From NCBI RefSeq assembly GCF_006345805.1, contig NC_043016.1, positions 29,512,001 to 29,576,000 of the forward strand: a stretch of 64,000 nt of DNA, written 5' to 3'. This DNA is from Octopus sinensis. Lineage: Eukaryota. Of this stretch, positions 5,763-53,100 are shown in pieces. The stretch's first letter is position 1. Each line of letters opens with the position of its first letter. Both the position numbers and the translations under genes were made by a program. Below the pieces are notes generated by a model that saw only the letters and a list, made by a program, of their open reading frames with translations, made no database searches and had not been told where the DNA came from.

Positions 5763-6929
5763 TATTATTTATTATTATTATTATTATTATTATCATCTCC
5801 TTCTTCTAGGTGTCCAGTTGGACAAAACTGTGTGAATTAGAATTTCCTGAAGCGATAATGTCAGTAATTACTCAAGGGAGGTAAGAATAATTTATGGATT
5901 ATTGAAAGCCGACATGAAAATGGTGATGTCCCTCACTTACCTGTCCATTTTTGTTTTTCTTACAATGAAATTCCAATGGACCATTTGACTCAAGTGACAC
6001 CTCTTATTTTCAATGTTGTTTTCAAGTTCTTTCATTAAATGAATTTAAATTCATGGCACCAGCATTGGTGTGGTTTTTCAGTCCCCTGCAAAACAAAAGA
6101 GTCTTTTCTGCTCTTCATTTTCTCCGTGTGATACCAATGTGACTAAGATGGTGAATAGAAAAAAGAGTGATAACCTAACAGGTGCAGGAAGAGAGTAAAT
6201 AGGAGTATGAAAAGTGAAAACAGTACTGAAAGCAAGAGGATAGTAGGAGAGGGAGTAATGGAAGAGACACAGTGATAGGCAGTTACATGTTGGTTATTGG
6301 TAAAGTTGTTGAATACAAAAACAATGTGGATGACATGATGGAATGGTAATAAAGGAGAGTGATAAAAAAAAGGGGCATGAGAATGGGAGTAGTAAATGTA
6401 GGGAATACATGAAGTGGACGAGAGAATGATGATTAGTGGTGCTGAATATTGGTCATAACAGATGCCATTCCTTGTTACACAGGTATCATGATGGAAGAAA
6501 GGTAAAGTGATAGATGGTGATGATGGAAGACAAAGTGACAACAAAGTTACAGTGACATAAACATGCCAACACCAGTTGTCAAGCAGTGGTGAGCGACAAA
6601 TATGGACACAAAGACACATACACAGATATATACATGATGGACTTCTTTCAGTTTCCATCTACCAAATCCACTCACAGGTAACATAAAAAAGTGGACAGAA
6701 GGGTAAATGATAGATGAGACAATAAGAAATGAGTCAGTAAAATTTTAACAGAGAGTGAACTGAAGCAACACAAAATAAAATGTCTTGCTCAAGGACACAA
6801 CACACAGCCTGGTCCGAGGATTGAACTCACTACCTCATGATTGTGAGTCTGACACTCTAACCACTGACCCATGTGTCTTTATATATATGTGTGTGTGTGT
6901 GTGTGTATACATATATATATATATGTGTG

Positions 6930-7099: not shown

Positions 7100-9414
7100 C
7101 ATACACACACGCATATACATATATATATATCTTTTCCTTGTTTCAGTCATTAGATTGCAGCCATACTGGGATGAACGAATTGATCCCAGCACTTATTCTC
7201 TTGCTAAGCCTGGTACTTATTCTGTCAGTCTCTTGTTGCCAAACAGCAAAGTTACGGGGACATAAACACACCAACACCAGTTGTCAAGCAGTGGCGGTGA
7301 CAAACATGAACACAAAGACACATACAAACATAGATATAAATGATGGGCTTCTTTCAGTTTCCATCTACCAAATCCACTCGCAAGGTTTGGTCAGCCTGAT
7401 TAAAGTATATCATTATTGAATTGTGTCATGGTGGTTGCAATGGACAGTGCTGAGTTGTCAAACATTTAAACCGAATTTTCTCAAAACAACTTGTTCGACC
7501 GTCCCATAGGCCTCCCCTTTGAGAAACACTGATTTAACCTAAATTTGAGACACTAGCAAAAGAAGAAATAAAGATAGACTTTTTTCTATTCCAAAGAAAA
7601 ACGATTTTATTCACACAAATATGCAACCGAAGTGTTTAAAGTACCAGTAATAATAAGGCTGTTGACTGGGAGAACACAAACATGGTTTAAACAGTAAGCT
7701 TGGCAGGAAAGAAATGTGCCTTTAAGAAGAACAAAAACAACTAGAAATGGAAAGTGCAGTTATGTACAGGTTGATGGAAGAAAAGCAGGACAAAAATGGC
7801 TATATCAATCGCATTCTCACCTGGAATCGATTTTTGTAATCTTTACAAGACTTATACACGCCCTGATACCGTCGGTATCTACATTTGTTTTCTATTCCAA
7901 AGAAAAACGATTTTATTCACACAAATATGCAACCGAAGTGTTTAAAGTACCAGTAATAATAAGGCTGTTGACTGGGAGAACACAAACATGGTTTAAATAG
8001 TAAGCTTGGCAGGAAAGAAATGTGCCTTTAAGCAGTACAAAAGCAACTAAAAATGAAAGGTGCAGTTATGTACAGGTTGATGGAAGAAAATCAGGACCAA
8101 AATGATGCATGCAAATGGGTTAGCTGGAGGTAAATCTAGATGGAAAAGCATGATGAATTTATGAGAACGTACCTGGGACAATAATAAGTTTATCTGATAA
8201 AACATGTAGGAAATCAACTTGGGGCGATTTTTGATGAAAAGCAACAACCTAGGGAACTAAGTAACTAATTTTATTATTTCAAGCCAGCTGGCTTTTTTTT
8301 GCGCAAACTGTACGTGCATTTTTCTTGTGCACACGAAGTATCGATCACAACAGCTGATGTACTCGTGCGTACAAATGCACATTCCCAAGGCTTTATCAAT
8401 CGCATTCTCACCTGGAATCGATTTTTGTAATTTTTTAAAGACTTATACGCGCTCTGATACTGTTGGTATCTACATATCAAATTTGAGCACAATCGGATGG
8501 AGGATGCCTGAGATCCTAGAAGACACACACACAGACAGACAGAACGGATTTTATATAATAGATATATATACACACATACATATATAGGGAGAATTCACAA
8601 AAACAAAACAAAAGACAATGACAGGTGGTGTAGACAACATAAATATATTATCTGTCGATAGGGGTGTCTTTGAGCCTGCACTTGTCCCCTCTACCCAGTA
8701 CTTGGAGGCTTGTGTTGGTGTTTTTACGTCTAGGTAACTTAGCGGTTCAGCTAAAGTGACCAATAAAATAACTACAGGAGTCGATTCATTTGACTAAATA
8801 TTCTTCAAGGCGGTGTCCCAGCATGGCCACAGCCTAATGGCTGAGCCAAATAAAGGATAAAAGATATAAAACTCTACCATGGTATCGAGTACTCTTTTTT
8901 TCTGATAGTTAATGCTAAACATATACATACTTACATGCCTAGATGTACACACACATTTGGTGTGTACGCTTTTGTGTGTGTGTGTGTGTGTTTGTATCAA
9001 ATGGTCAGACAGCAAGCTGCTCTGCTATTTAGTTTTACTAAACACAGTATTGATCCCGTGCCAGATATCACTGGGATCAATATAGCCATGAGAGACAAGT
9101 GAATCATTGTTAAGTTGTGTACCTTTAAGCATGTAACTTATTTCCATTTTTTATTCATGTAAGTTATATGCTATATACAATTGAGGCAGTATCTAATAGA
9201 AAAATTACTGTCCTTATATCATACCCAATGTATATACACAGTTGATAAGACAGTTATTGTGGTATTTGTCCTAAGATAACATCTCTTTATGGACTTGTCT
9301 CTCTCTGATATTTATTGTTTTTAACACGGCAAGTACATCAGAGATGTTATCTCAGGTCAGATACTGTGATAGCTGGCCTATCGACAGTGTATATTCATTA
9401 AGTATGGAACATGG

Positions 9415-9449
<35 letters not shown>

Positions 9450-10174
9450 AATAGAAATATTAAAATAACTAAGTCTCTCTAAAAGAGAACAGCGGCAGCG
9501 TTCCCGGAAAATAATAGTTATCGCCATACTAATATGGCATTCTTATAAAAATAAGAAAAAAGCTGTCCGCTTATTAGCTCCATGAGGCCATCGCCTTAAG
9601 TTAGCTATTTGATACACAAACTGTATCCATATAACCTTCGAACAAGGGAGGTCAGTCGCTCCACACTACTTGACCGGCAGCTACAGACACGTTTCGGGGT
9701 ATTGCCCCTTTTCAATGCAGCGTAGCCAGCCAGTAGGTTATATGGATACAGTTTGTGTATCAAATAGCTAACTTAAGGCGATGGCCTCATGGAGCTAATA
9801 AGCGGACAGCTTTTTTCTTATTTTTATAAGAATGCCATATTAGTATGGCGATAACTATTATATATATACACACACACACACATATATAAAATAAAAACTA
9901 AATGTGCCCTTTTAAAGCCTAGCCAGGCTCATGGGCCCGGTTTCCCCGTTTCAATGGCGTATGTGTTCTCCGGCTGGATGGAACGCCAGTCCATCACAGC
10001 GTTACTCATTTTTGCCAGCTGAGTGAACTGGAGCAACGTGAAATGAAGTGTTTTGTTCAAGATCACAACACGTCACCCGGTCCAGGAATCAAAACCACAA
10101 TCTTATGATCATGATGCTGACACCTTAACCACTAAGCCACACGCCTCCGCTATATATATATACATGTATATAAG

Positions 10175-10255
<81 letters not shown>

Positions 10256-10670
10256 TGTGGCTGTGTGGTAAGGAGCTTGCTTCCCATCTACATGCTTCTG
10301 GGTTCAGTCCCACTGCGTGGTACCTTGGTCAAGTGTCTTCTACTATAGCCTCAGGTTGACCAAAGTCTTGTGAGTAGATATGGTAGACCGAAACTGAAAG
10401 AAGCCCATTGTGGTATCTATCTATATATATAAATATATATTTATGTATGTGTGTCTTTGTGTCTGTGTTTGTCGCCTCACCATTGCTTGGCAACTGATGT
10501 TGGTGTGTTTATCTCTCTGTAACTTAGCAGTTTGGCAAAGGAGACTGATAGAATAAGTACTAGGCTTATAAAGAATATATCCTGGTGTCGACTTCTTCAA
10601 CCAAAAGCCTTTAAGATGATGCTCCAACATGGCCACAATCAAATGACTGAAATATCTAAAAGAATAAAAG

Positions 10671-10719
<49 letters not shown>

Positions 10720-12276
10720 ATATGTATGTGTAGCACATGGTTTTTAGGTTCAGTCTCACTGCGTTGAACCTTGGGCAAGTTTCTTCTACTATAGCCTCAG
10801 ACCGACTGAAGCCTTGTGATTGAATTTGGTAGGTGGAAGTTTCTGTTGTGTGTGTACATGTGTAAGTGCTTCTGCTTCCTAACAGGGAGGAGAGGAATAA
10901 AAAATATGTTTGTATGTATATGTGTATGTGTGTTTGTTGTGTTTTTTCCCCACAACATAAATTAACAACAGGTGTTGGTGTGTTTATGTCCTCATAACTT
11001 AGCACTTTGGCAAAAGAGATTGATAGAATAAGCATCAGGCTTAAAAAAAAGAACTAAAATTCTTTGAGACAGTGCCCCAGCATGGCCACAGTCTGTATAT
11101 AAATATATACAGGGGTTGGACAAAATAATGGAAACACTTTAAAATTTCAAACAAATTTATTTTAATATGGAGTAGGACTGCCTTTGGCAGTAATTACAGC
11201 TTGACTTCTATGAGTTATGGACTCATAAAAAGTTTGAATTGTTTCCAAAGGCATTTTTGTCCATTCTTCAGCTAAAACAGTCTCCATTTCTTGTAGCGAT
11301 GATGGTGGAGGATATCAACTCCTTACTTGTTTTTCTAAAATGCATCATAAATGTTAAATAATATTGAGATCTGAGGACTGTGGTGGCCAGATAAGATGTT
11401 CAACTTCACTAGAATATTCCTCGTGCCATTTAGTAACAACTTAAGTTGTGTGAATTGGTGCATTATTATCCTGAAAGATTGTGTTTCCCTCTGGAAATAG
11501 TTCTGCAACCATAAGATGAATTTGATCAGATAAAATACTTATTTTATCTGATCAATTGACTATTAATTCTGCCATGAAGGGAAACCATTGGGTCAGTGGA
11601 TTTTCGAGATATAGCCCCCAGATCATCACAGATCCTCCTCCATATTTAACAGTTAGTTGGAAGAAGGCAGTGTGTCATGTGCTTCTTTTGGCTGTCTCCA
11701 CACGTATACTTGGCCGGTGGTTGGAAATAAGCTAAAGGATGACTCGTCTGAGAAAATAACATTCTTCCACTGCTCTAGGGATTAATTCTGTAGGTTTTTA
11801 CTCCACTCTAAACGCTTTGCAACGTTTGTTTTTGAAAGTAGTGGTTTTCTGATTGTAGTCCTCCTGTGAAATCTGGCTTTGTGCATCTCCTGGTGAACAG
11901 TTTTTGTGGAAATTGGGTTCTTGAGGTGGTCATTAAGCTCTGTAATTTTAGGAGCTGCACTTTGGTGATCCTTTCTAACAATTTGTGTTAGAGTTCGATG
12001 GATCTGAAAGTTTTGGTTTTCATCCGGAGTTTTGTTTTGATGAGAAGGTTTTTCCCTCTTTCTCAAAGGGTGTCATTACTTTCAAGACAGTACTTCTTGA
12101 TGCACTAAACATTTCAGCTGTTTTCTTTATGCTAGTACCTGCCATACGAGCACCAACAATTTGACCTCTTTGAAAGTCCAATAGATCTGTCCTTTTAATG
12201 AATTTTAATTACCTTTTTCTGATGAAGCAATGTGATTGGATCTAGTAGTAGGCAGAAACTGAAAGAAACCCTATCA

Positions 12277-16510: not shown

Positions 16511-19500
16511 CCAGGTTGATAAAAAGCAATCTGGTGCATAATGGTAAACTGGAAGCTGAAGATTCCATTGAACTTAGTTTAACAAAAGAAATTGTTATTC
16601 TTGAGCAACACCTGTACCGTCCACCTCGTATCCACAATGACGACAAAATGAAAAGGCATCTTATTCAAAGAGTTTTGGATATTTGGTCAGATCCAGTGAC
16701 CAGAAGTGATGATTCTGATGTGTCATCAAATATAAGGATATGTCAAAGGTCAGGACCAGTAACTGGAGAACTTCTGCAGCCACATGCAGTGATAAGATTC
16801 AAAATTGTAAGTTATATTGTACAAGTTTTATTTATATATCTTTCTGTTGTTTCCTCGGTGTTTTTCTCTCTCTCTTACTGTGACTCTTCCTATCTCTGTC
16901 TGTCTCTTTTTATCTCTCTTTCTTTCTTCTTATTTCTCTCTCTGTCTCCTCTTATCTCTCCTTGTTGTTTCCTAGCTTTCTCTCTGTCTCTTCATATTTT
17001 CCTCTTTCTATCTCTTGTGTTAGGAAAGGCATCCAGCCATGAAAAAAACATGCCAAAACAGACACTGGAGCCTGGTGCAGTCTTCTGCCTAGCCAGCTCC
17101 TATCAAACCATCCAATCCATGCCAGCATGGAAAGCGGATGTTAAATGATGATGATGGTGTCTGTATATATGTGTGTGTGTGTATATGTGCTTGTGTGTGT
17201 ATGTGTGTGTATATGGATGTATGGATGGATGCATGGATGCATGCATGCATCTGCCTGTATGTATGTAATGTGAGTATGTATGTCTGTCTGTATGTACATA
17301 TGTATGTGCATGCATGTATGTATGTATGTATTCATTCAGTTTCCGCTCACAAAATTTACCTGCAAGGCTATGGTCAGCCTGGGTCTATATTAGAAGACAC
17401 TCTCCCAAGCTGCTAAGCAGCAAGACTGAACCCGAGGCCACATGGTTGGGAAGCAAGCTTCTTAACTACACAACTATGTGTACATGTTACACAGCCATGA
17501 GTACATGTATGTATGAATATATATATATATATATATGCAATCAGCTGCATTTATACTATTTGATGTCATTTAATCAGATAGCTCTGTGTCATCAAATCTC
17601 CTTCTTATATGCCATTTGATTTGTACTGCACAACCTTCAAACATTCGGCCTCACCAAGGCAACGACAAGTGACTGAGACCTTTGGAGATATGCTGTGCTT
17701 GAGAAGTCCTGGCAAGCCAATTGAGATCGTAACCGTGGCCCATGCCAGTACAGCATAACCAGCCCATTTAAGAGTACCTTTCATTCATTGGGCAATAAAC
17801 TGTGCTTGTGAAGACCTGTTGAGGCAAGTGAAATTGTTGTCGTGGCTGATTTTATTTTACATTATCGTCAATATTTTTGACCACGCTAATGTAAATTATC
17901 TCCCTTAGAAATTTTAACGGGACATGATGTCAATACTTGTTCATCAATCATACTATATATTTACACATACTTATATATACTATATATACTGTATTTTCTA
18001 TATATATAGTATAAACTATATATACTATCATACTTATTTAAATACTATAGATAATTTTTATTGCTTAACTCTTTAGCATTCTGATTACCCTCTCAAATGC
18101 TATACTTATTTATTCACATTGTTTTGAATTAATCATAAGTTATCTCATAGTTTTAAAATGTCAATGATTTGATTGCTTATTTTTTAGAATGACATAGTAA
18201 GGTAGGCGTGTGAAACCAAATTTGGCTGGTATCAACATAAAACAGGCAGAACATTTGGGTTTAATTGCTAAAGAGGTTAGCCCTTTAGCATTTAAACTGG
18301 CCACATCCAACCCAGATATTATATTTGTTTTATGTTCAAACCAGTTAGATCTGACTGCTTACACTTACCCTATAGTATCATGCTAAAACTACACAATCAC
18401 ATCATTGAAATCTCAAAGTTATGTGTTAATGCAGGATCAGTTAAAAAAAATGTGAATGAATAAGCATTACATTTGACAATGATTGAATATTTAAAGATTA
18501 GCAATAACAGGAAATTAATTTTGTGAATGTAAACATTGCATAAACCCTCTTTTAAGTGCTTTTTGAAATCGTTGAGTTCAGTGTGGTAAATGTCATGTTT
18601 CTGTCTGCCTTCAGTATGCCACAAACTTTCCAACAGAGTGGGAAATATGTCCAGTCATAGAAACACAAACGTTTCTATGGCTGGATGTCCTTCCTAACAC
18701 CAACCACTTTACAGAATGTGGTGGTTGCTTTTCTTTCTTATTTATTTACTGCCCACAAGGGGTTACATGCAGAGGGAACAAACAAGGACAGACAAACAGA
18801 TTAAGTCGATTATATTGACCCCAGTGCATAACTGGTACTTATTTAATTGACGCTGAAAGGATGAAAGGCAAAGTTGACCTCAGCAGAATTTGAACTCAGA
18901 ACATAGTGGCAGACGAAACACCGCTAAGCATTTTGCTTGGTGTGCTAACGTTTCTGCCAGCTCACTGCCTTTTCTTTCTTGTAGCACCAGAACTCTAGCA
19001 GTAAAATATTTCTTCAAATATAACTCTATATAATCAATGCTAGCATGGATAAGAAAAAAAAAGACATTAAACAAATGGCAAACTTTGTGGTTTTTATTCT
19101 AAGATTTTATCTTCATGTTTTATTACTGAAAGTTTACAAACTAAACCAGAAAAAAAAAAAAAGAAGTTAAAATGAAAAAAAAAACAAGAAAAAGCAGACA
19201 ATATATCCAAAATAATGACAATTATTTTCTACTGCAGCCTGTAAATAACGTTGGAAAATGTAATGGTGATGAGACAGTGTCTTCAGAAATGAAATTTTTC
19301 CCCAGAAGTGACAAATGTAATGGAGATCACAAATGTAATGGAGATAACAATGTCAATAATAGCAAAGATGTGGAAGAAACGTTGCAGAGACTTATGAACA
19401 AGATGAGAATTGATGACATTATCTTAGACCATCTGTATGTTGAAGGAATCGAGATGACCGTGGCCGATCTTATGTTGTTTGTCTTCACTTATCATTTCAT

Positions 19501-21022
19501 TGTAAGTAATGACTACTCTGTCTGGTATTTTATCTTTCCCTGTGATCTTTACTTTGTTTATCAAACTGTGGTTCATCACCATCAACCTGTTGAGGGTTTT
19601 TTTTTTTTTATAGTGCACTACTCTTTCTCTCCCTCTCTCTTCCTCTCCCCACTTCCTGTTTCTCTCTCAACATCCTCTGATTTATTTACAGAAGAAAAGG
19701 AAAACTGTATCATTACCATCATCGTCGTTGTCAACATTATCATCATCATCAACATCATCACAATCATCACCATCTTAATTCTTTTCTACTCTAGGCACAA
19801 GGCCTGAAATTTTTGGGGAAGTGTGGGCTAGTAAATTAGACACCCCCACCCATATGCAACTGGTACTTAATTTATCGACCCTGAAAGGATGAAAGGCAAA
19901 GTCGACCTTGGCGGAATTTGAACTCAGAACGTAAAGACAGACTCGCCTGGCGTACTAATGCTTCTGCCAGCTCATTGCCTTAATCACCATCTTAATTGTC
20001 ATAATCACTGCCCTCATCATCATCATAATTGCCATAGCCACCAACACTGCCATCACTATCACCACGTGATTAAATTAGATTACTAAATTTTTTGCTGTTT
20101 TCACAATTAAATAGAGTGAAAATAGTAAATGTCAACAGAAATACGGTACCAAAACACAGGTACCTTGGTTGCCTTGGTTACCTTGGTAGACCTGTGTTTC
20201 TCAAGCATTTTTTTTGCCTGTGGACCCCTTTAATTCCTCTTTTACTCAGATGGACCTGCCCTGTCATTTGATGTTTAAAATATTTCAGCGAGGTCGTTGC
20301 CAGTGCCGCTGGACTGGTTCCTGTGCAAGTATTACGCAAAAAAACACCATTTGAGCATGGCCGTTGCCAGTACCACCTGACTGGTCCCTATGCCAGTGGC
20401 ACGTAAAAGCACCCACTACACCCTCGGAGTGGTTGGCATTAGGAAGGGCATCAAGCTATAGAAACTCTGCCAGATCAAGATTGGAGTCTGGTGCAGCCAT
20501 CTAGTTTGTCAGCCCTCAGTCAAACCGTCCAACCCATGCTAGCATGGAAAGCGGACGTTAAACGATGATGATGATGATGTTGATAATGATTATATTTCTA
20601 TAATCAAATATTAAGAATTGTATAAAAACAATTATTAAAATATTTTGTTTAATGTAGAAGTATAACCATATGGATTCTGGTTGGGAACCACTAATGTACA
20701 CCATTCTTTTGCAAGCTTTTGAGTCAGTACTCTGGTTTAATGATACTTCCTTCCCTTATTCTCACCAGTCTTGGAGACCCTCTCAGTGGTTATGGACTCT
20801 GCCTTCTCTCTTTACTAAAAGATAAAAAAACAAAACAGCATCAATAAATAAAGTGCACATAATATACATTATTTACATTCGACGGATATTTGTCCTCATC
20901 TTGTTTGTTTTTAACACAACGTTTCGGCTGATATACCCTCCAGCATTCATCAGGTGTCTTGGGGAAATTTCGAACCTGGGTTCTCATTCCTGAGGTATTT
21001 TTCAATGATGTTGTTATTATTA

Positions 21023-32500: not shown

Positions 32501-33582
32501 TATAAAAGGCAGCGAGCTGGCAGAAACGTTAGCATGCTGGGCGAAATGCTTAGCGGTATTTTGTCTGCCACTACGTTCTGAGTTCAAATTCCGCCAAGGT
32601 CGACTTGCCTTTCATCCTTTCGGGGTCGATAAATCAAGTACCAGTTTTGCACTGGGGTCGTATGTAATCGACTTAATCCTTTTGTCTGTCCTTGTTTGTC
32701 CCCACTATGTTTAGCCCCTTGTAGGCAGTAAAGAAATATATATATATATATATAGCAATAAGAAAATGGAAAGGATCAATAGGTGGTTCATCAACTTTTA
32801 GACATTATATTATGTCAACTTATTTATTTATTTACTAAAATGACAATTACAAGAATATACATACATGTATAACATATTATGCTATACATATAAGATATAA
32901 AATATATTAATATATAAGGATACTAGTAATTATTACAATATAACATACATGAATATAAATTGGGAAAATAACTTACAGCTGTTTCAGCCAAGAGGTAAAA
33001 ATACCTCATTCTACCTTTATTACTCAAGTGGAGTGAAGTAATAGGCAGGTGAAACTGAAGTACTTGGGTATATCTCTAGGCTTCGTCAGAGATTATAAAG
33101 TACATAATGTTAAGTTATAAATAAATATAGATATAAAATAAATGAAAATACACACACATTTAAATACTTATGTATATAGGTATACATATACATACATATA
33201 TAAATATACATAAATACTTATATATATACTGAAATGTACATACATATTTGAATTTATAAGCATACACAATAATCAGTTATAAACAGACACACACACACAC
33301 AAACACAGATAAATTCATATATATATATATATATATATAACTAATTAAAATAATTTATTCATTTCAGTGCAATCTTGGTTATTTCCATGGCAAATTTGAT
33401 GTTGGAACTTGTCTCCATGCTTGTGGTGTTGCAACTGACATGGTGCTACAGAAGTGCTTGGACAGTAAGGCAGCTTTTGTAGTTTGTCCTTGTTGTTATG
33501 GTGCCGTACAGAACACTCACCTGATTTCATATCCAAGAAGCCAACTTTTCCAAAAGGCAAACATTTCTGATAAGGTAAATAA

Positions 33583-44527: not shown

Positions 44528-47500
44528 GGCTGCCATACTGTGAAATCACGGAAATTTGGTGCTCCATAAGTTGAAAAATTGTTTGTAATCTTTTCAGCCT
44601 TCTAAGGCCCGGTCTTTTCATTTCTATTGTTATCATTACATTTCTGAGATTTTCTGGACTGCGCAGATAGTACTTTTGTGTAGAAACACCTCTGTTTTGC
44701 AGGGAATGCACTACTATAATTTTTGAATTTTAAATGCTTTCAGCAAAAACAAATATTTTGCAATTTTCTGTAATTATATAAAGACGGCTGATAAAGAAGC
44801 CATCATAATGTTTGACAAAGGAATGCACTTCTTGTCAGGGAAAAAATGAGAACAAAGAAAGAATTGAGAATATGAATATCAACTGGTCAAAACTTTCAGT
44901 GTCAACAACGAGAACAACACCAGCAACCTGCAACAGCAGTAGCAGTGACAGCAACAACAAACATGCAAATATTGCCTCTGCATCTTTTGCGTCAGCAGTG
45001 GGAAATATGGAAAGTTTCCACATAGATGAAGAAGAATTAATATTGGCAAGAAAAATTGTAAAAGGAGATGGGAGAAGGGTAGATCTAAACCCTCCATCTG
45101 ATGTGATAAAAAATATCGTAAGACGCATGGTAACATATCGGTGCATTGGAGTCAAGTCTTGGCGAGTGGAAAATGCTCCTGTGAGTAAAGTACAAAAAGG
45201 CTTTGGGCGTGTGTGGGAACAAAAGACCCACATCACCCGAGGAAAGAAGTTTGGAACTATTGAGGTGAGATTTGAGCCTGAAGAAGAAGAAGCCAGGTGC
45301 AATTCCACGACCGCTTTGAGAAATGACAACTTTTTCTCAATCTCCAACAATCATGGCTAATGCCTTGCCAAGATTAGGGTGCTGAATGTGCTGTCAGAAA
45401 TATCCATTACCTGGTTAGTGGCAGCCGTCTTGGCAGGTTTAGAAGAAGACGAAATGACAATATTAGAGGTCAAGAAACTACCTTTCCAAAACTGGTTGGG
45501 TATAGGCATGGAACTGACCTTGCAATAGAAGGACCATATCGACCAGCTGCCCAATCTAATTGATCTCTTGGATGCTACTCACCTGTCAGTGAGCCAAGAT
45601 GTCACACATGTGGATCTGTAAATCACTTAAAAGCTTCCTGTCCTGAAACAAGGAAGAATAAAGTCCCACTGCTGCCAACATTACAAACACCATAAGCGCA
45701 AAACCATAAATAAGTGCTCAAGACTCCTTCACCTGCTCCCACATCCATGCTCACACCCACTCCCAAACCAAGACAAAGAAAGAGTCTGTCCCCGATTGCC
45801 ACAAAAAAGTAAGTTTCTCCTGAATGCTCTTCCTCCCAAATCAACATCAACTGCAATGACATGGAGAAAGAAGAGCTGAACGATCAATGGGTCACAATGA
45901 CAAAAGTGGGTAGGCGAAAGAGGAGGAGAGTATGTAGCCCTACTCCAAGAAATCAGCAAAAACTTATTTTGAAACCACAACTGCAACACACTTCACAACC
46001 ACTACAATAAGAACAAGATCAACAACTTCAAAAACAGCAACACCATCAACAACAGCATGAAATCACAGAAACAACCAATTACAGAACTTCAAAAGTATTT
46101 ATCAGACTGTAGATGAAATGTACCCATCAATTTCACTGTTGTGAACAAGTATAGCAGTAAATTGATGGATTTTGTAAATCAAAATAAAAACAAGGAAAGA
46201 ATTTGAGGATTTTATCCTCAAAACCTCCATGGACAGACTATCAATTAAAACATCGTCAGAAGTTTATAAAACTATAATAGAAAAATTCCCAGGAAGTGTG
46301 GTGATTTAAAAAAAAAAATCTGTTGATAAAAAGCTGTCGGAGGGCTTTTTAAAAAATTTTCGCCAGTAGAGAGGCCTGGAACTTTTGGGCTTCTTGAAAA
46401 TCAAGGTGAGTAATTTCCTCATTTTCTTTCTCCAACTAGCATCGCTGAAAATGGGGTGTGTGAATGTGCATGGCCTGGGACCAACTTGAAAGCAAGGTCA
46501 CTTGCTCAACAATCTCCAGTCACTTGATTTGGATATGGATTCCATTAGTGAAACAAGGATCTCTGGAAAACATGCTCTAGCATCTATTTTCAAGGACTAT
46601 GAGGTATTCTCATCTTGTGGTCTATCAGGTGTGAGTGGCAGTGTAGCAGTGCTACTCTGGAAATCCTTAGATCTCTAAGTATGGTCTTTCTGGACCCAGA
46701 TGGTAGGATGGTGATCCTGGACATGAATGGCAGTGAAGGTGGCACCTTTAGACTGGTGACAGTTTATGCCCCAACAAGGGCTGGAAAGCCAGATTTCTTC
46801 AGGCTTCTAGTAACATTTTTGGGTATATTTTGCACTTTAGTACTATAGGAGGTGTGGAATAGTATTTTGGACGCATGGAAGGACTGTGTGGGTTTAGTAC
46901 ATAATAGTAGGGGGTCTAGAAGCCCTAAAAACTTGCTCAGGACTTTCCCGTTTTCTGACAGGTATCGAATGGAATTTCATGATGTGACAGTGTGGACATG
47001 GAGCAACCACAGCGGGTCAGCCAGATCGAATTTAGATTGAGTATTTGTTAAGTCAGAGGATAGGGATAGCATAGGGTGTCCACAATTTAAATTGGCCAGC
47101 TACGCAGATCACAAATTTGTGATATGCTCAGTCGATTTAGATAAGACTTGTAGACAGGGACCTGGTTACTGGAAGTTGAATGCTTCCTTACTGGCTTGCA
47201 AAGACTACAGGGACTGGATTAATGAACTGTTAAGTGGACGTTGATAGGGGCTATCATCAACAACCACTGGTAGATCTCTCTGAAGAGAGTGATTAGATAG
47301 TGTTTAGCAAAGATTTAGCAATAGAAAGAAATAGATTAGAGGAAGAACTAGTTAGCAAACTAGAAGAGGCTGTTAGTAAAGGCATCAAGACCGACATGTT
47401 AGCAGCGAGAATGACCCTTGACCATTTCTTTAAGGTGAAACACAAAGGGTGTGTTATCAGAGATAAGGCCTGTGTGCTAAAACACAAAGGAACTAAAGCC

Positions 47501-48957
47501 ATCTGATGGACCTGAATGGTAGAGATGTGACGTGGAAACAAAATCATGATGAAGTCTTTGATGGATCAGGATGGACGTGTGCTACTTGGTTCTGATCAGA
47601 TGTGTGGGGCTTCCTAGCAGCTGTTTGGGGAAGGTGATGGGTTGATGACAGGAGTGAACTTTACTTTGTACCTAAACGGCCTACCATGGCTCTTGATGAT
47701 GAACACAAGATTCTGTGAAAAGTTAATTACAGCATCTGAAATACAGGAGGCAATGAGCGATTGCACAAGTCGCAGATCACCCAGTTTGGATGGTCTACCC
47801 TATGAATTCTATGTTTCCATGCCAGATTTGTTTGGCAGCCTCTTGGCAGATGTCTACAATAACTGGGAGCAGAGTGGGAGAATTCCTAGTGCTGTTAGCC
47901 GTGGTGTAGTAACACTGCTAAGAAAGGACACCGACAATAGGGAATTTTTGGCCCATGTCTCTGCTAAACACAGAAATTTTGGCTAAGGTGTTAGCGGAAA
48001 GGTTGGCATTTGTCATTGGTAGTTTGGTCAGGGAGACACAAACGTACACAATCCCAAGCAGGTCTATCCACCACAACCTTCACCTTATGCGATACATCAT
48101 AGAGAGGGCTAGGATTAAAACTGGTTTCAGTGGGGCCCTGTGAAAATGGCAAGAGTGGATGGTACAACTCTCAGTATAGGCCTGTGAATCAGAAGAAAGA
48201 AGTTGGAGAGGGCTCTCGTCCTCGGTATTCAGGGTGATCTTGGATGGAAGGGGTTCCTTGATTATCCCTAGAAGTCCTCCTGTATCAGGGGGATCCCATC
48301 AATATCACTTTTTCCCCCTCTTTTTCTAGTGTCATATACTATGTATACTTCACTTCTTCTATTGTATACCATGTATACTTTTTATTTTATCATTCCATGA
48401 ACATCGAAATAAATATCAATGGAAATAGTAGTTGTGATACCTGTGCCGGTGGCACATAAAAAGCACCATCCGTACGTGGCCGTTGCCAGCACCGCCTCGA
48501 CTGGCTTCTGTGCCGGTAGCACATAAAAAGCACCATCCGAACGTGGCCGATGCCAGCGCCGCCCCGACTGGCTTCTGTGTCAGTGGCACATAAAAAGCAC
48601 CATCCGAACGTGGCCGTTGCCAGCGCCACCTTGGCTGGCTTCCGTGCTGGTGGCACGTTAAAAGCTCCAACCGATCGTGGCCGATGCCGGACCCCCCCTG
48701 GCACCTGTGCAGGTGGCACGTAAAAAGCACCCACTACACTCGCGGAGTGGTTGGCGTTAGGAAGGGCATCCAGCTGTAGAAACTCTGCCAGATCAGACTG
48801 GAGCCTGGTGCAGCCCCTGTAGAAAACGGACGTTAAACGATGATGATGATGATGATGATGATGATTCCATTATATGTAAACCCCCATACGTTATGTCTGT
48901 CTTTGTATTGTCTCATTGTTCCTCTCATCTTTCGCCCTGATGACAAATAAAAGAAAT
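44528..48957 (+). mobile_element. Decayed Tx1/L1-like LINE copy 1 (ORF1 with CCHC knuckle; ORF2 APE + partial RT; internal deletion; 3' UTR)
   Basis: CHTCGSVNHLKASC at 45600-45641; ORF2 from ~46451 NVHGL…ISETR, VYAP, GYWKLNASLL, SPSLDGLPYEFY, ILAKVLAERL; many stops; RTE-derived insert 48399-48863 with TSD ATTCCAT. Confidence 0.88.
48399..48863 (+). mobile_element. RTE 3'-UTR-derived element with ~66-bp tandem units
   Basis: Four to five units, GTTAGGAAGGGCATCC motif, (GAT)n tail, 7-bp TSD ATTCCAT. Confidence 0.85.
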
Positions 48958-50190: not shown

Positions 50191-53100
50191 GGTTTTCAAA
50201 GCAGAGGGACATGTCTTGAAGAGCAATAACACCACAAGCAACTGCAGCCGATGAGGACCCACAAACACTGAAGAGAGACTTACAAGACATTCCCCTTCCT
50301 GATCAAACTAACTTGGACAGTTTGAGTACTGATGGTGAGAAGAATGAATGGCATACAGTGCCTCCAAAAACGAAAAGAAAGAAAAGGAGCAGAAAAGATG
50401 GAGAGGTGCAAAGAAGCAGATATTTCCAACAGCAGCAACAACACGCACACACAACACCACCTTCACCAGCACTAACACCTCAAACACCAACACAAATTAC
50501 AGCACGCACAGACCCCACCAGCACTACGAACATCACAGCCATAAATCTAAACAATGAAGACCTGGTCACATTTCTGAAAGACAACACAAGACACCACAAT
50601 GGAAGACTTTCTTATCCCAACACACAACACGCCACCACCACCACCACCACACATACTAATTTTCAAGATCACACAACACAATTACAATACTTTTAAAACA
50701 AAATTTCCACAAGATGTTGGGTCACTTCAAAAAACATTCACCAAAAAAAAATATTTAAAAATCTTGTGGAAATACCCACACCAAAGCACAAGGGGTCACC
50801 CCACAGACAAGAATAGTACATAGAGCTTTTCTACTTTGTAAAAAAACTTTCAACATGGTTGTGCTCAGAATTGGTAGCATAAATGTCAGGGGCTTCAGGT
50901 TGCCTTGGAAACAAGGTCATCTCTTAAACAACCTGAGATCTTTCAGTGAGGATGTAGCAGCCATTAGTGAAACCAGGCCTTTCGACCCATGGGACCTCAC
51001 AGCCCTTTCTGGTGGATATGAGATTTTTCTATCTTTGTGTTGTCGAGGAGTGGGTGGTGGTGGTACTGTGGTGCTTTTCCGGAAAGGCCTGGGTCTGAAA
51101 ATAAAGGCAATCCAGAAGGTAAGTTAACGGTCCTGGTTGTGAACAGCAGTGGTGGCTGCTCTAAAAGGGGCAGGGGGGTGGATTATTTCAAGCATTTTGA
51201 GGTTTTCCTGGGAATGTCTTGCACTTTAGTGCTAGTAGGGGATTGGAATGCTGTCTTAGACAAACATTTTGATCACATGGGAGTGGGAGCATCTGATAGG
51301 AGAGGGGGATGCAAAAGCTTCACCAACCTGCTCAGACGCTTTCAACTGTCTGACAGATACCAACTAGATAACCCGAATGTACCAATGTGGGCTTGGACAA
51401 ACCGCATCAGGTCACACAGATCGTATCTAGATATAGAGTTTTCTGAGGCCAATGGATAAAGACAGTGTAGGGTGTCCACAATTTCATAGTCGGCTACACA
51501 GACCATAAATTCATGAACTGTATGGTTGACTTAGGTAAGCGGCATATACAGGGTCCTGTTTACTAGAAGGTGACGAGCTGGCAGAAATGTTAGCATGCCA
51601 GGCAAAATGCTTAGTTGTATAACATCTGCTGCCACGTTCTGAGTTCAAATTCCGCCGAGGTCGACTTTGCCTTTCATCCTTTCGGGGGCGATTAAATAAG
51701 TACCAGTTATGCATTGGGGTCAATATAATCGACTTAATCTGTTTGTCTCTCCTTGTTTGTCCCCTCTGTGCGCAGCCCCTTGTGGGCAGTAAAGAAATAA
51801 GAAGCTTAACACATCATTACTGGCGTGCAAAGCTTGCAAAGACCAGATTAGTATGCATTGACAGGGGTAATTGTCAACAACAACTGGTGGTTTGGTCTTA
51901 GAATAGAATCAATTAGGTTTAGTAAGACATTAGCTATAGAAATAAATAAAATAGAGGGAGATGTGGTGCTTAGGACAGGCATTGCGACTGACTTGTTGGT
52001 GGCAAGGTTGGCCCTAGACCAACACTTCGGTGCCAAACATGGAGGCTACATTGTCAGAGCTAAGCCACATTCAGTAAGCAGGGAGGGGACTAAAGCCATT
52101 TGATGGGCCTGATTGGCAGAGGCTAAATGTGGCAACAAAGCCAGCATTTGGTCTTTGGTGGACCAGAATGGGTGTGTGGTGTTCAAACCAAAGTAGATGT
52201 ATGTGGCCTTGCTGCAGCACTTTACTCAACTGTTTGGGACAAATGGTAGGACAGATAATGGGGCAGATTTTGGTGTGTACCTGGACGGCCTGCTGTGACT
52301 CTCAGTAAATGAGGCAGAGTGCGAAAGACCTGGGAAGTACAGGAAGCTATGAAAAACTGCATGAGAGGCAGATCACTGGGTTTGGATGGTCTGCCCTATG
52401 AGCTTTATATTTTAGTGCCAGACTTGTTTTGCGGGCCTCTTAGTAGACATCTACCGCAACTGGCAACAAAGCCGAAGAATTCCAGCTTTTGTTTGTCAAG
52501 GAGTGGTGACACTGCTGAGAAAGGACCCAATCAAGGGGGACATTATAGAAAATTTCAGGCCCATCACTCTGCTCAATGCAGAGTTGAAGATTTTTGTCAA
52601 GGTGTTAGTCAAGAGGTTGGTGCTTGTCATGGACAAGCTGATTGGCAAGGTGCAAACATGTGCCATCCCAACCAGGTCTATTAGTGACAACCTTCACCTT
52701 ATGCACTACATCATAGAAAGGATGGGTAATGAAGCTGGCACGGGTGAGGCTTTGATCAATTTTGATAAGTCTAAAGCCCTTGATACAGTTGACCATTGAT
52801 ACTTCGCAAGGCAGCTGGTTTTGGTCCAGTCTTCCATGGGTGGTTCACTGTTTTGTACAGCAGCATCTGCTCGGTTATATGGGTGAACGGTCACCTGTCA
52901 GAGCTGTTCAGCATCTTGTGCTCGGTCTGCCAAGGATGCATTTTCTCCTCCCTTCTCTATGAATTGTCTCTCGAGCCATTACTGTGGAAGTTGGAGGCAT
53001 TGAGGTGTGTCCTCCATAATCTAGGGTGTGTGTGAAGAGCATGTCTGCTGATGCCGATGACATCACCATGATAGTGTTGAACCAAAGGCATATCGACCTA

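Follow-up and report, generated by a model that had tools for sequence, protein, structure and literature searches.

In the available portions of the papers cited here, metazoan non-LTR retrozymes are described as non-coding tandem units of 150-450 bp, for which a Penelope-like helper has been proposed (PMC7229834; Li, Clavereau and Pollet, 2026, 10.64898/2026.07.22.740005). Those portions describe no protein-coding cargo in retrozymes, and in PMC7229834 they hold no mention of 'octopus' or 'cephalopod'. The axolotl ribozyme HHR_Amex1 shows 6% cleavage as a monomer and cleaves far better as a dimer (PMC7229834), and one of nine predicted retrozyme dimers was cleaved in vitro (Li, Clavereau and Pollet, 2026). 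Hammerheads with a U3-A8 core are on record as about 1,300 motifs in Cercyon-related repeats of Schistosoma (Cervera and de la Pena, 2014, PMC4209133) and as several examples in a second survey, in which earlier in vitro activity of such swaps is cited (Perreault et al., 2011, PMC3088659). Penelope-like elements leave inverted, 5'-truncated copies that often carry a tail at one end only (Craig et al., 2021, PMC8557442); with a purified Penelope-like protein, for which a dimer is predicted, both strands are nicked and extended (Frangieh et al., 2024, PMC11167929), and the reverse transcriptase (RT) uses two internal start sites on the RNA, which bound the tail, at AT-rich or microsatellite targets (PMC11167929; PMC8557442). 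Target-specific LINEs of the Tx1 group include Tx1L in Tx1D, Keno in U2 and Tx1-Mar in Mariner-N4 (Kojima, 2015, PMC4494074). Finally, terminons are telomeric, endonuclease-less elements with an RT of their own, in which long chains of ORFs are punctuated by hammerhead repeats (PMC6431247, which we take to be the review of Arkhipova and Yushenova, 2019).

Here, we compare with these systems a locus in a 64-kb window of octopus DNA (the window being the whole stretch that was analysed). As judged from sequence comparison, positions 9446-9861 are a truncated copy of a young family of non-LTR retrozymes with a 362-bp unit. The reading that we favour, and to which we give a probability of about three in four, is that this copy is likely inert, that tandem units elsewhere are predicted to be transcribed from a TATA-like box, to undergo self-cleavage as double hammerheads and to be copied, likely in trans by a Penelope-like RT-endonuclease, into (TA)n, and that a LINE found at the predicted transcription start of the unit is cargo. 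Hammerhead retrozymes and U3-A8 cores were known already; new are a LINE that sits at one site of the unit and travels with it, and the position of such LINEs at TATA-like starts. The family makes three questions testable: how Penelope-like insertions acquire inverted ends and tails, whether retrozymes move through circles and with what load, and how a LINE chooses its target.

The preliminary description had reported a perfect 127-bp inverted repeat at 9511-9861, and the two arms (9511-9637 and 9735-9861, 127 nt each, separated by a 97-nt spacer) are indeed 100% reverse-complementary. The hairpin is not the whole element, which extends from 9446 to 9861 and, by BLAST with a natural monomer, consists of two partial 362-bp units placed back to back with both 3' ends facing outward. 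The long arm (9446-9738, minus strand) corresponds to unit positions 1-293, with ribozyme, body and tail, and lacks unit positions 294-362, in which the TATA-like box and the LINE target site lie. The short arm (9735-9861, plus strand), which is also the right arm of the inverted repeat, corresponds to unit positions 102-228 and stops at what we call the short terminus; the left arm of the repeat (9511-9637, minus strand) is the same stretch, 102-228, inside the long arm. The tail (unit 229-293) is present at the left end only, at 9446-9510 on the minus strand. At the strand switch, the arms overlap by a 4-nt microhomology (9735-9738). The insertion is flanked on the left by a (TA)15 microsatellite (9416-9445), its target, and on the right by a TA/CA run (9862-9888). 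An older inverted repeat (9220-9286 and 9340-9406; 67 nt, 78%) lies directly to the left of the insertion.

A genome search with 9446-9861 returned at least 258 matches from the best 40 of 624 candidates, and among these best 40 at least 15 other places match the 293-nt arm along its length with 100% identity, in keeping with the proposal that the locus is a young, non-autonomous retrozyme- or Penelope-type insertion in (TA)n. The unit (362 bp, 41% GC) has one type I hammerhead and occurs in head-to-tail arrays, the largest, of about 22 units, at C20:2.596-2.604 Mb. Thus, in length, GC content below 50%, tandem arrangement, non-coding nature and a weak palindromic helix III, the unit belongs, by the features compared, with the metazoan non-LTR retrozymes, as these are described in the available text (PMC7229834; Li, Clavereau and Pollet, 2026). 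It differs from them in its U3-A8 core, in the two fixed termini of the 42 insertions discussed below, in its resident LINE and in ORF1-only derivatives of such LINEs. Two consecutive ribozyme-bearing units, by which the 2026 preprint recognises an active copy, are found in the family, but the window copy has only one. Having neither unit 294-362 nor a second ribozyme, and lying antisense in an intron, the window copy is probably inert, and the hairpin is by itself ordinary.

The ribozyme lies in the spacer, on the minus strand, at 9680-9724. After a UAC bulge (9724-9722), helix I is formed by GCUGCA (9721-9716) and UGUAGC (9685-9680), 6 bp that are then extended further; the core UUGAAAA (9715-9709) places U3 at 9715 and A8 at 9710; helix II, of 4 bp with a CAAUA loop, is GGGG-CAAUA-CCCC (9708-9696); and GAAA (9695-9692), the near-palindromic ACGUGU (9692-9687) and C17 (9686) follow, with the cut predicted between 9686 and 9685. 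These helices are of canonical size, and the minimal form that had been suggested by analogy with Penelope-like elements does not apply. Folding of an isolated 80-nt domain gave pair probabilities of 0.85-0.99 for helix I and 0.98 for helix II, those of helix I falling to 0.41-0.48 when the whole locus was folded; the 116-nt spacer region had a folding z of -2.5 against 200 shuffles. A pattern of the ribozyme in which positions 3, 7 and 8 were left free had 1,674 matches in the genome and none in a reversed control, so that the pattern is not a product of chance and the type I hammerhead with a U3-A8 core is confirmed. The window ribozyme has no Rfam match at E <= 10 (8000-12000 and 9640-9745 searched), and a C3-G8 copy of the homologous family C scored 26.6 bits with Hammerhead_1, below the gathering threshold of 34; the loop of the Rfam consensus, CAAAUA, recurs in 12 of 63 family-B units. 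A blind spot is evident here: the genome has over 1,600 U3-A8 ribozymes, well formed, of a type of which the copy tested had no Rfam match. Unit 285-335 also resembles a hammerhead but was discarded, as it has no helix I and its GAAAC is GTAAC in many family-B copies.

Helix III of this ribozyme has a loop of only 2 nt and is unable to close in a monomer. By hand count, the helix III words of the first 100 matches listed are ACGCGU (54), ACAUGU (39), ACUAGU (3), ACGUGU (3) and ACACGU (1), i.e. perfect palindromes of three kinds in 96 of them. Within the C20 array, 17 units match the unmutated pattern and form 11 natural adjacent pairs. When these pairs were folded (no shuffled control was included), the double hammerhead was the minimum-energy fold in nine, and in the other two it came within 0.5 and 4.3 kcal/mol of the minimum; across the 11 pairs it lay 11.7-19.5 kcal/mol below two single ribozymes. 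These predictions suggest that the ribozyme likely works as a dimer via its palindromic helix III, and in this respect it resembles HHR_Amex1, for which the available text describes a weak helix III with a palindromic loop (PMC7229834). The window copy carries a wobble variant of the palindrome (duplex of -3.1 versus -7.5 kcal/mol) and has no partner ribozyme.

The U3-A8 pair of the window copy is, by comparison with its relatives, inherited and not a local change. U3 and A8 were found in all of the first 100 matches listed of the 1,674, as expected if the pair is the family consensus. Among the units compared (eight duplicate loci were excluded and some overlap may remain), the 3-8 pair is U-A in 75 of 75 units of family A; U-A in 60, C-A in two and U-G in one of the 63 of family B, an older subfamily that is 81-84% identical to A and has 2,658 candidates in the genome; C-G in nine and U-G in three of the 12 of family C; and C-G in 15 and C-A in one of the 16 of family D. 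Family C was found with a C3-G8 pattern alone (27 matches, control 0), and a pattern search for a C3-G8 form of family A itself returned only this more distant family. Homology of family C extends downstream of the ribozyme: with an A+B profile, 14 of 15 loci scored 12.5-25.3 bits, and none of 150 shuffled controls exceeded 10 bits. Family D is linked more weakly (three of 16 above 10 bits; C-D median z of 10.7 in a motif-filtered set). The UAC bulge is conserved in families A, B and D. Compensatory changes were found in both stems: in helix II, pairs 10.1-11.1, 10.2-11.2 and 10.4-11.4 all alternate between G-C and A-U, pair 10.1-11.1 being G-C in family A and A-U or G-U in family B, and helix I shows swaps as well. 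Thus, the covariation of stems that had been anticipated across other copies exists, and the part of the preliminary description that read the 3-8 pair as compensatory holds among homologous families, whereas the pair was neither changed nor selected at the window site. Nor is the U3-A8 core a new variant, as it is already in print (Cervera and de la Pena, 2014; Perreault et al., 2011). The covariation is shared with Schistosoma, but there, as far as the available text goes, it concerns minimal ribozymes of Penelope elements and here ribozymes of canonical size; unlike in the published U3-A8 cases, again in the text available, C3-G8, U3-G8 and U3-A8 coexist here among homologous families of one genome (PMC4209133; PMC3088659). 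U3-G8 is fixed in two family-C sub-lineages, and in a wider listing one C-type copy is U3-A8, possibly marking a stepwise path from C3-G8. The U3-G8 wobble sub-lineages lie at L144, L148, L151, L157 and L249-L252, some with GUU in place of GUC as the cleavage triplet. The family-D core is CCGAUGA (U4C) in 16 of 16 units, which were classed by that core, and these units have a longer helix III (L142, L150, L161-L167).

How the arrays may be expressed is suggested by the position of the box. Transcription would start about 28 nt behind TAAATAAAA, located at the end of the preceding unit, and about 60 nt ahead of the cut site; neighbouring ribozymes are predicted to pair via the palindromic helix III and to release unit-length RNA, which may circularise. 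The head-to-tail joint of the unit is present in sequencing runs X1, X10 and X11, none of which is recorded as RNA and in whose contigs circles and array read-through are inseparable. A 392-nt contig that goes once round the unit (L070:8983-9344) was seen in run X6, which is labelled as from another organism and has no host-exon contig, and it was not counted as evidence for circles. Although chains of ORFs punctuated by hammerheads are shared with terminons, the octopus arrays are interstitial and their ORFs belong to LINE-derived guests, in contrast to what the available text describes for terminons (PMC6431247).

The ends of the insertions were surveyed in 42 family-A copies, 25 from the search with the window element, a set partly picked by likeness to the window, and 17 that bear a LINE. 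Two outward 3' ends, one at unit 221-231 and the other at unit 283-296, were found in 33 of the 42; two insertions have two tailed ends, seven have one end unresolved and none has two short ends. For the 17 selected for the LINE, irrespective of their ends, the figures are 12 one-tailed, one two-tailed and four with one end unresolved. The two types of end differ by a tail of 63 nt, present at one end and absent at the other; (TA)n borders nearly all resolved ends, and at most strand switches, whose positions vary, the overlap is about 0-7 nt. The features of Penelope-type insertion, i.e. an inverted truncated copy, a tail at one end and a microsatellite target, are thus seen together in 33 of 42. 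We infer that the insertions arise by twin priming, by analogy with Penelope-like integration: a dimeric Penelope-like protein would nick both (TA)n strands and prime at two fixed RNA sites 63 nt apart, and the two cDNAs would join at a short microhomology, leaving an inverted insertion with one tailed end. The inverted repeat is a by-product of integration: the 127-bp arms represent sequence that both cDNAs covered, and one cDNA was extended beyond it, which placed the ribozyme in the loop. The ribozyme is not there by design, as had been implied, since the junction points vary from copy to copy. The two internal RT starts, the tail, the inverted copy and a (TA)n-type target are shared with Penelope-like elements as described in the available text (PMC8557442; PMC11167929), but the unit has no ORF, its tail is of 63 nt against 30-40 nt there, and the near-strict rule of one tail was counted here on a non-autonomous element and with cargo of up to 29 kb. 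The rule fits twin priming by a dimer and gives both priming sites to the base.

Dozens of family copies carry a LINE, which is copied along with the retrozyme unit. At C7:28.86 Mb, two family-A units enclose a LINE of 5,360 bp with a zinc-knuckle ORF1 and a 1,140-aa ORF2 frame that holds APE, RT and zf-RVT domains; it is flanked by a 17-bp target duplication that ends about 8 nt before the UAC bulge of the ribozyme. These are features of the L1/Tx1 group. The nearest solved relative of its protein is human L1 ORF2p (E of 3.5e-66, against 4e-23 for R2) and the closest named one is from Argonauta hians (57%); we refer to the element as putatively Tx1-like. Its 5' junction pattern had 39 matches and its 3' end 35 (controls 0). 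Of 30 3' ends, 27 run into the duplication and the retrozyme, two into another LINE copy and one elsewhere, so that 29 of the 30 checked lie at the site of the 17-bp duplication in the unit or in a tandem LINE. The LINE occurs in several host sub-variants, the duplication allele being the same at both ends in 16 of 16; the median divergence of 16 copies is 0.9%. A 5'-truncated copy inside a unit was encountered just once (69 nt, at an unchanged target site; L216). Insertions that bear the LINE keep both outer end types of the plain retrozyme. The LINE lies at its fixed site of the unit at L168 and L226-L245, and an insertion of 29.0 kb (C3:72500871-72529895) has four tandem repeats of the 5.72-kb composite of LINE and unit plus an inverted fifth, i.e. 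five LINE copies between the two usual end types. Composites of several units, and once of 29 kb, match the product expected of a rolling circle and bear on both the mobility of retrozymes through circles and their carrying capacity.

Derivatives of 1.4-1.7 kb that keep only ORF1 behave alike in families B, C and D. In the best 30 such loci, a poly(A) signal and a family-specific junction stand at the end in 30 of 30, and homology to the ribozyme unit was found in 29. Their protein, of about 445 aa with a zinc knuckle, is encoded in tandem units joined to families B, C and D, many of the frames being open (L118:2492-6948, L138-L167, L171-L174); it had no match in Pfam or the ESM Atlas. LINE derivatives that keep ORF1 alone are known as HAL1, and those described here are alike in this. 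One ORF1-only copy (L173:8013-9374, minus strand, the first of three ORFs) shows, by eye, many changes of the A-to-G type relative to its tandem neighbour (K to R, E or G; Y to C); such changes would be expected if the RNA had undergone A-to-I editing before it was reverse-transcribed. In the open literature searched, we found no description of a LINE resident in, or carried by, hammerhead retrozymes; Repbase, Dfam, subscription journals or supplements may nevertheless contain these families.

Insertion sites were surveyed at 60 loci of related LINEs (75-97% amino-acid identity). Nine had no 3' end and 19 no resolved duplication; six of the remaining 32 candidates were dropped as internal or ambiguous, and the 26 with a usable duplication, with family A added, made a set of 27 rows in 17 target classes. 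In 14 of the 17 classes, a TATAWAW box with no more than one mismatch starts 25-33 nt upstream, against one to three of 17 in five other windows and a mean of 1.8 and a maximum of seven in 5,000 shuffles, the 25-33 nt window having been fixed, at the textbook TATA distance, after the sequences were inspected. This interval is the usual one between a TATA box and the start of transcription. Six of the 17 classes are related retrozyme families, of which five fit the spacing; among the other classes nine of 11 do. Other related LINEs sit in unrelated sequence. The duplication at L317 and the 5' junction at L254 consist of bases 1-17 of U1 snRNA; 10 of the 12 loci that hold this 17-mer are U1 genes that start there, and the order at L317 is LINE end, 17-mer, LINE start. 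The LINEs at U1 base 1 (L317:1501 and L254) are of the family-A lineage, and the one at L254 also lies between two U2 genes. The related LINE at L265 has an autonomous Penelope-like family as its host and lies within the terminal repeat, 29 nt downstream of a TATA-like box. From the TATA spacing and the insertions at U1 base 1, we infer that this LINE clade targets start sites of RNA polymerase II, and the LINE site in the retrozyme would be the unit's own transcription start. Recognition would be of a start site and not of a sequence, which we did not find described for non-LTR elements; nor did the open literature searched contain an account of LINEs aimed at TATA starts. The Tx1 LINEs, as far as described in the available text (Kojima, 2015, PMC4494074), share with those studied here two ORFs, a fixed site in multicopy targets, tandems with one duplication and, possibly, borrowed transcription, but here the targets, different in sequence, have a position in common, some 30 nt downstream of a TATA-like box or at U1 base 1, and among the hosts are ribozyme retroelements, which go on to carry the LINE.

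The LINE could instead have no preference for start sites, in which case a sequence preference or chance would have brought it into a master retrozyme on one or a few occasions, with passive amplification thereafter. We regard this as unlikely, although it is the most serious of the alternatives. Passive amplification as such is evident from the shared outer ends, and nearly all family-A copies of the LINE are full-length with one junction, so that most may descend from few insertions. However, families A, C and D, which differ in the duplicated sequence, have separate LINE lineages at the corresponding site; LINE-LINE tandems have one duplication between the copies; and unrelated targets share the TATA spacing, with U1 entered at base 1. 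Under the preferred reading, in which start sites are sought, the LINE would gain from the retrozyme a promoter, ends made by the ribozyme and a second means of spreading. A fuller version, to which we would give even odds, is a parasitism of three tiers: a clade of L1/Tx1 LINEs that seeks start sites would repeatedly have colonised retrozymes, the unit providing promoter and cut ends, the 5.7-kb RNA would circularise, and a Penelope-like RT would copy it round and round, up to 29 kb.

No autonomous Penelope ORF (RT plus GIY-YIG) was found in or between units at the loci examined. A GIY-YIG search of the genome gave at least 147 matches among the best 150 of 5,029 candidates, and none of 30 GIY-YIG loci was a Penelope-like helper that shares sequence with the unit. 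The only one of the 30 to touch the family (L047) was rejected as an opposite-strand neighbour in a TA run, and a 4-kb gap between two ribozymes (L118) held ORF1-only units and no Penelope ORF. Intact RT-GIY-YIG frames of 775-883 aa, which from the cysteines of their linker are probably Neptune, exist in the genome and end in (TA)n, and its Penelope-type elements end in (TA)n with an optional tail of 41 nt; the architecture of the retrozyme insertions points to a Penelope-like RT-endonuclease as a candidate helper in trans. That the resident LINE is itself the helper, its ORF2 moving plain retrozyme and composite alike as one autonomous element, seems to us improbable. In its favour, no other RT was found physically within the family, the LINE is young, its copy at L226 has a near-complete open ORF2 and the 30 GIY-YIG loci yielded no partner; yet LINE insertions stop a few bases past AATAAAGA and produce duplications of 11-24 bp at start-like sites, whereas retrozyme insertions begin at two internal sites, in (TA)n, inverted, like the Penelope-type elements of the genome. 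Two-ORF Penelope-like elements that end in (TA)n carry U3-A8 minimal hammerheads (L062-L069, L045 and L049, with A3-U8 in L049), and in several the core follows a run of T and ends in AG, resembling a splice acceptor.

The gene that hosts the window copy, presumably GSTCD, lies on the plus strand, with its first coding exon some 1.1-1.6 kb ahead of the window. As had been implied, the element is intronic: an AG/GT-bounded exon at 5810-5880 (plus strand) precedes it, and the next recognised coding exon lies inside 19145-19807, later exons following from 19145. A downstream exon (33364-33575) has a Pfam Methyltransf_32 match and is spliced in runs X1, X10 and X11, from three studies. A 127-bp stem in the host pre-mRNA, also proposed before, is predicted by folding. 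The hairpin might for this reason be a functional regulator of the host gene, as ribozyme switch, editing substrate or source of small RNA, and the perfect predicted stem in a gene that is expressed and spliced in three runs would suit such a role. We consider it very improbable: the ribozyme is antisense to the pre-mRNA and would not cut it, it is single and its palindrome is the weak wobble variant; the identity of its arms to many dispersed copies reflects youth and not conservation; and copies differ freely in the length of their loops. Another reading, that of a MITE or foldback DNA transposon, in which there would be terminal inverted repeats and an incidental ribozyme, agrees with the perfect inverted arms and the TA-rich target, but was already refuted by the survey of copies, which have no fixed terminal inverted repeats, as the repeat is not terminal at the left, where a 65-nt tail lies outside it, its length and position shift between copies and the unit also occurs in head-to-tail arrays. 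A decayed and more distant L1/Tx1-type LINE, 23% identical to the ORF1 of the cargo, lies further along the window, at 44809-45669, 47618-47986 and 50220-52799.
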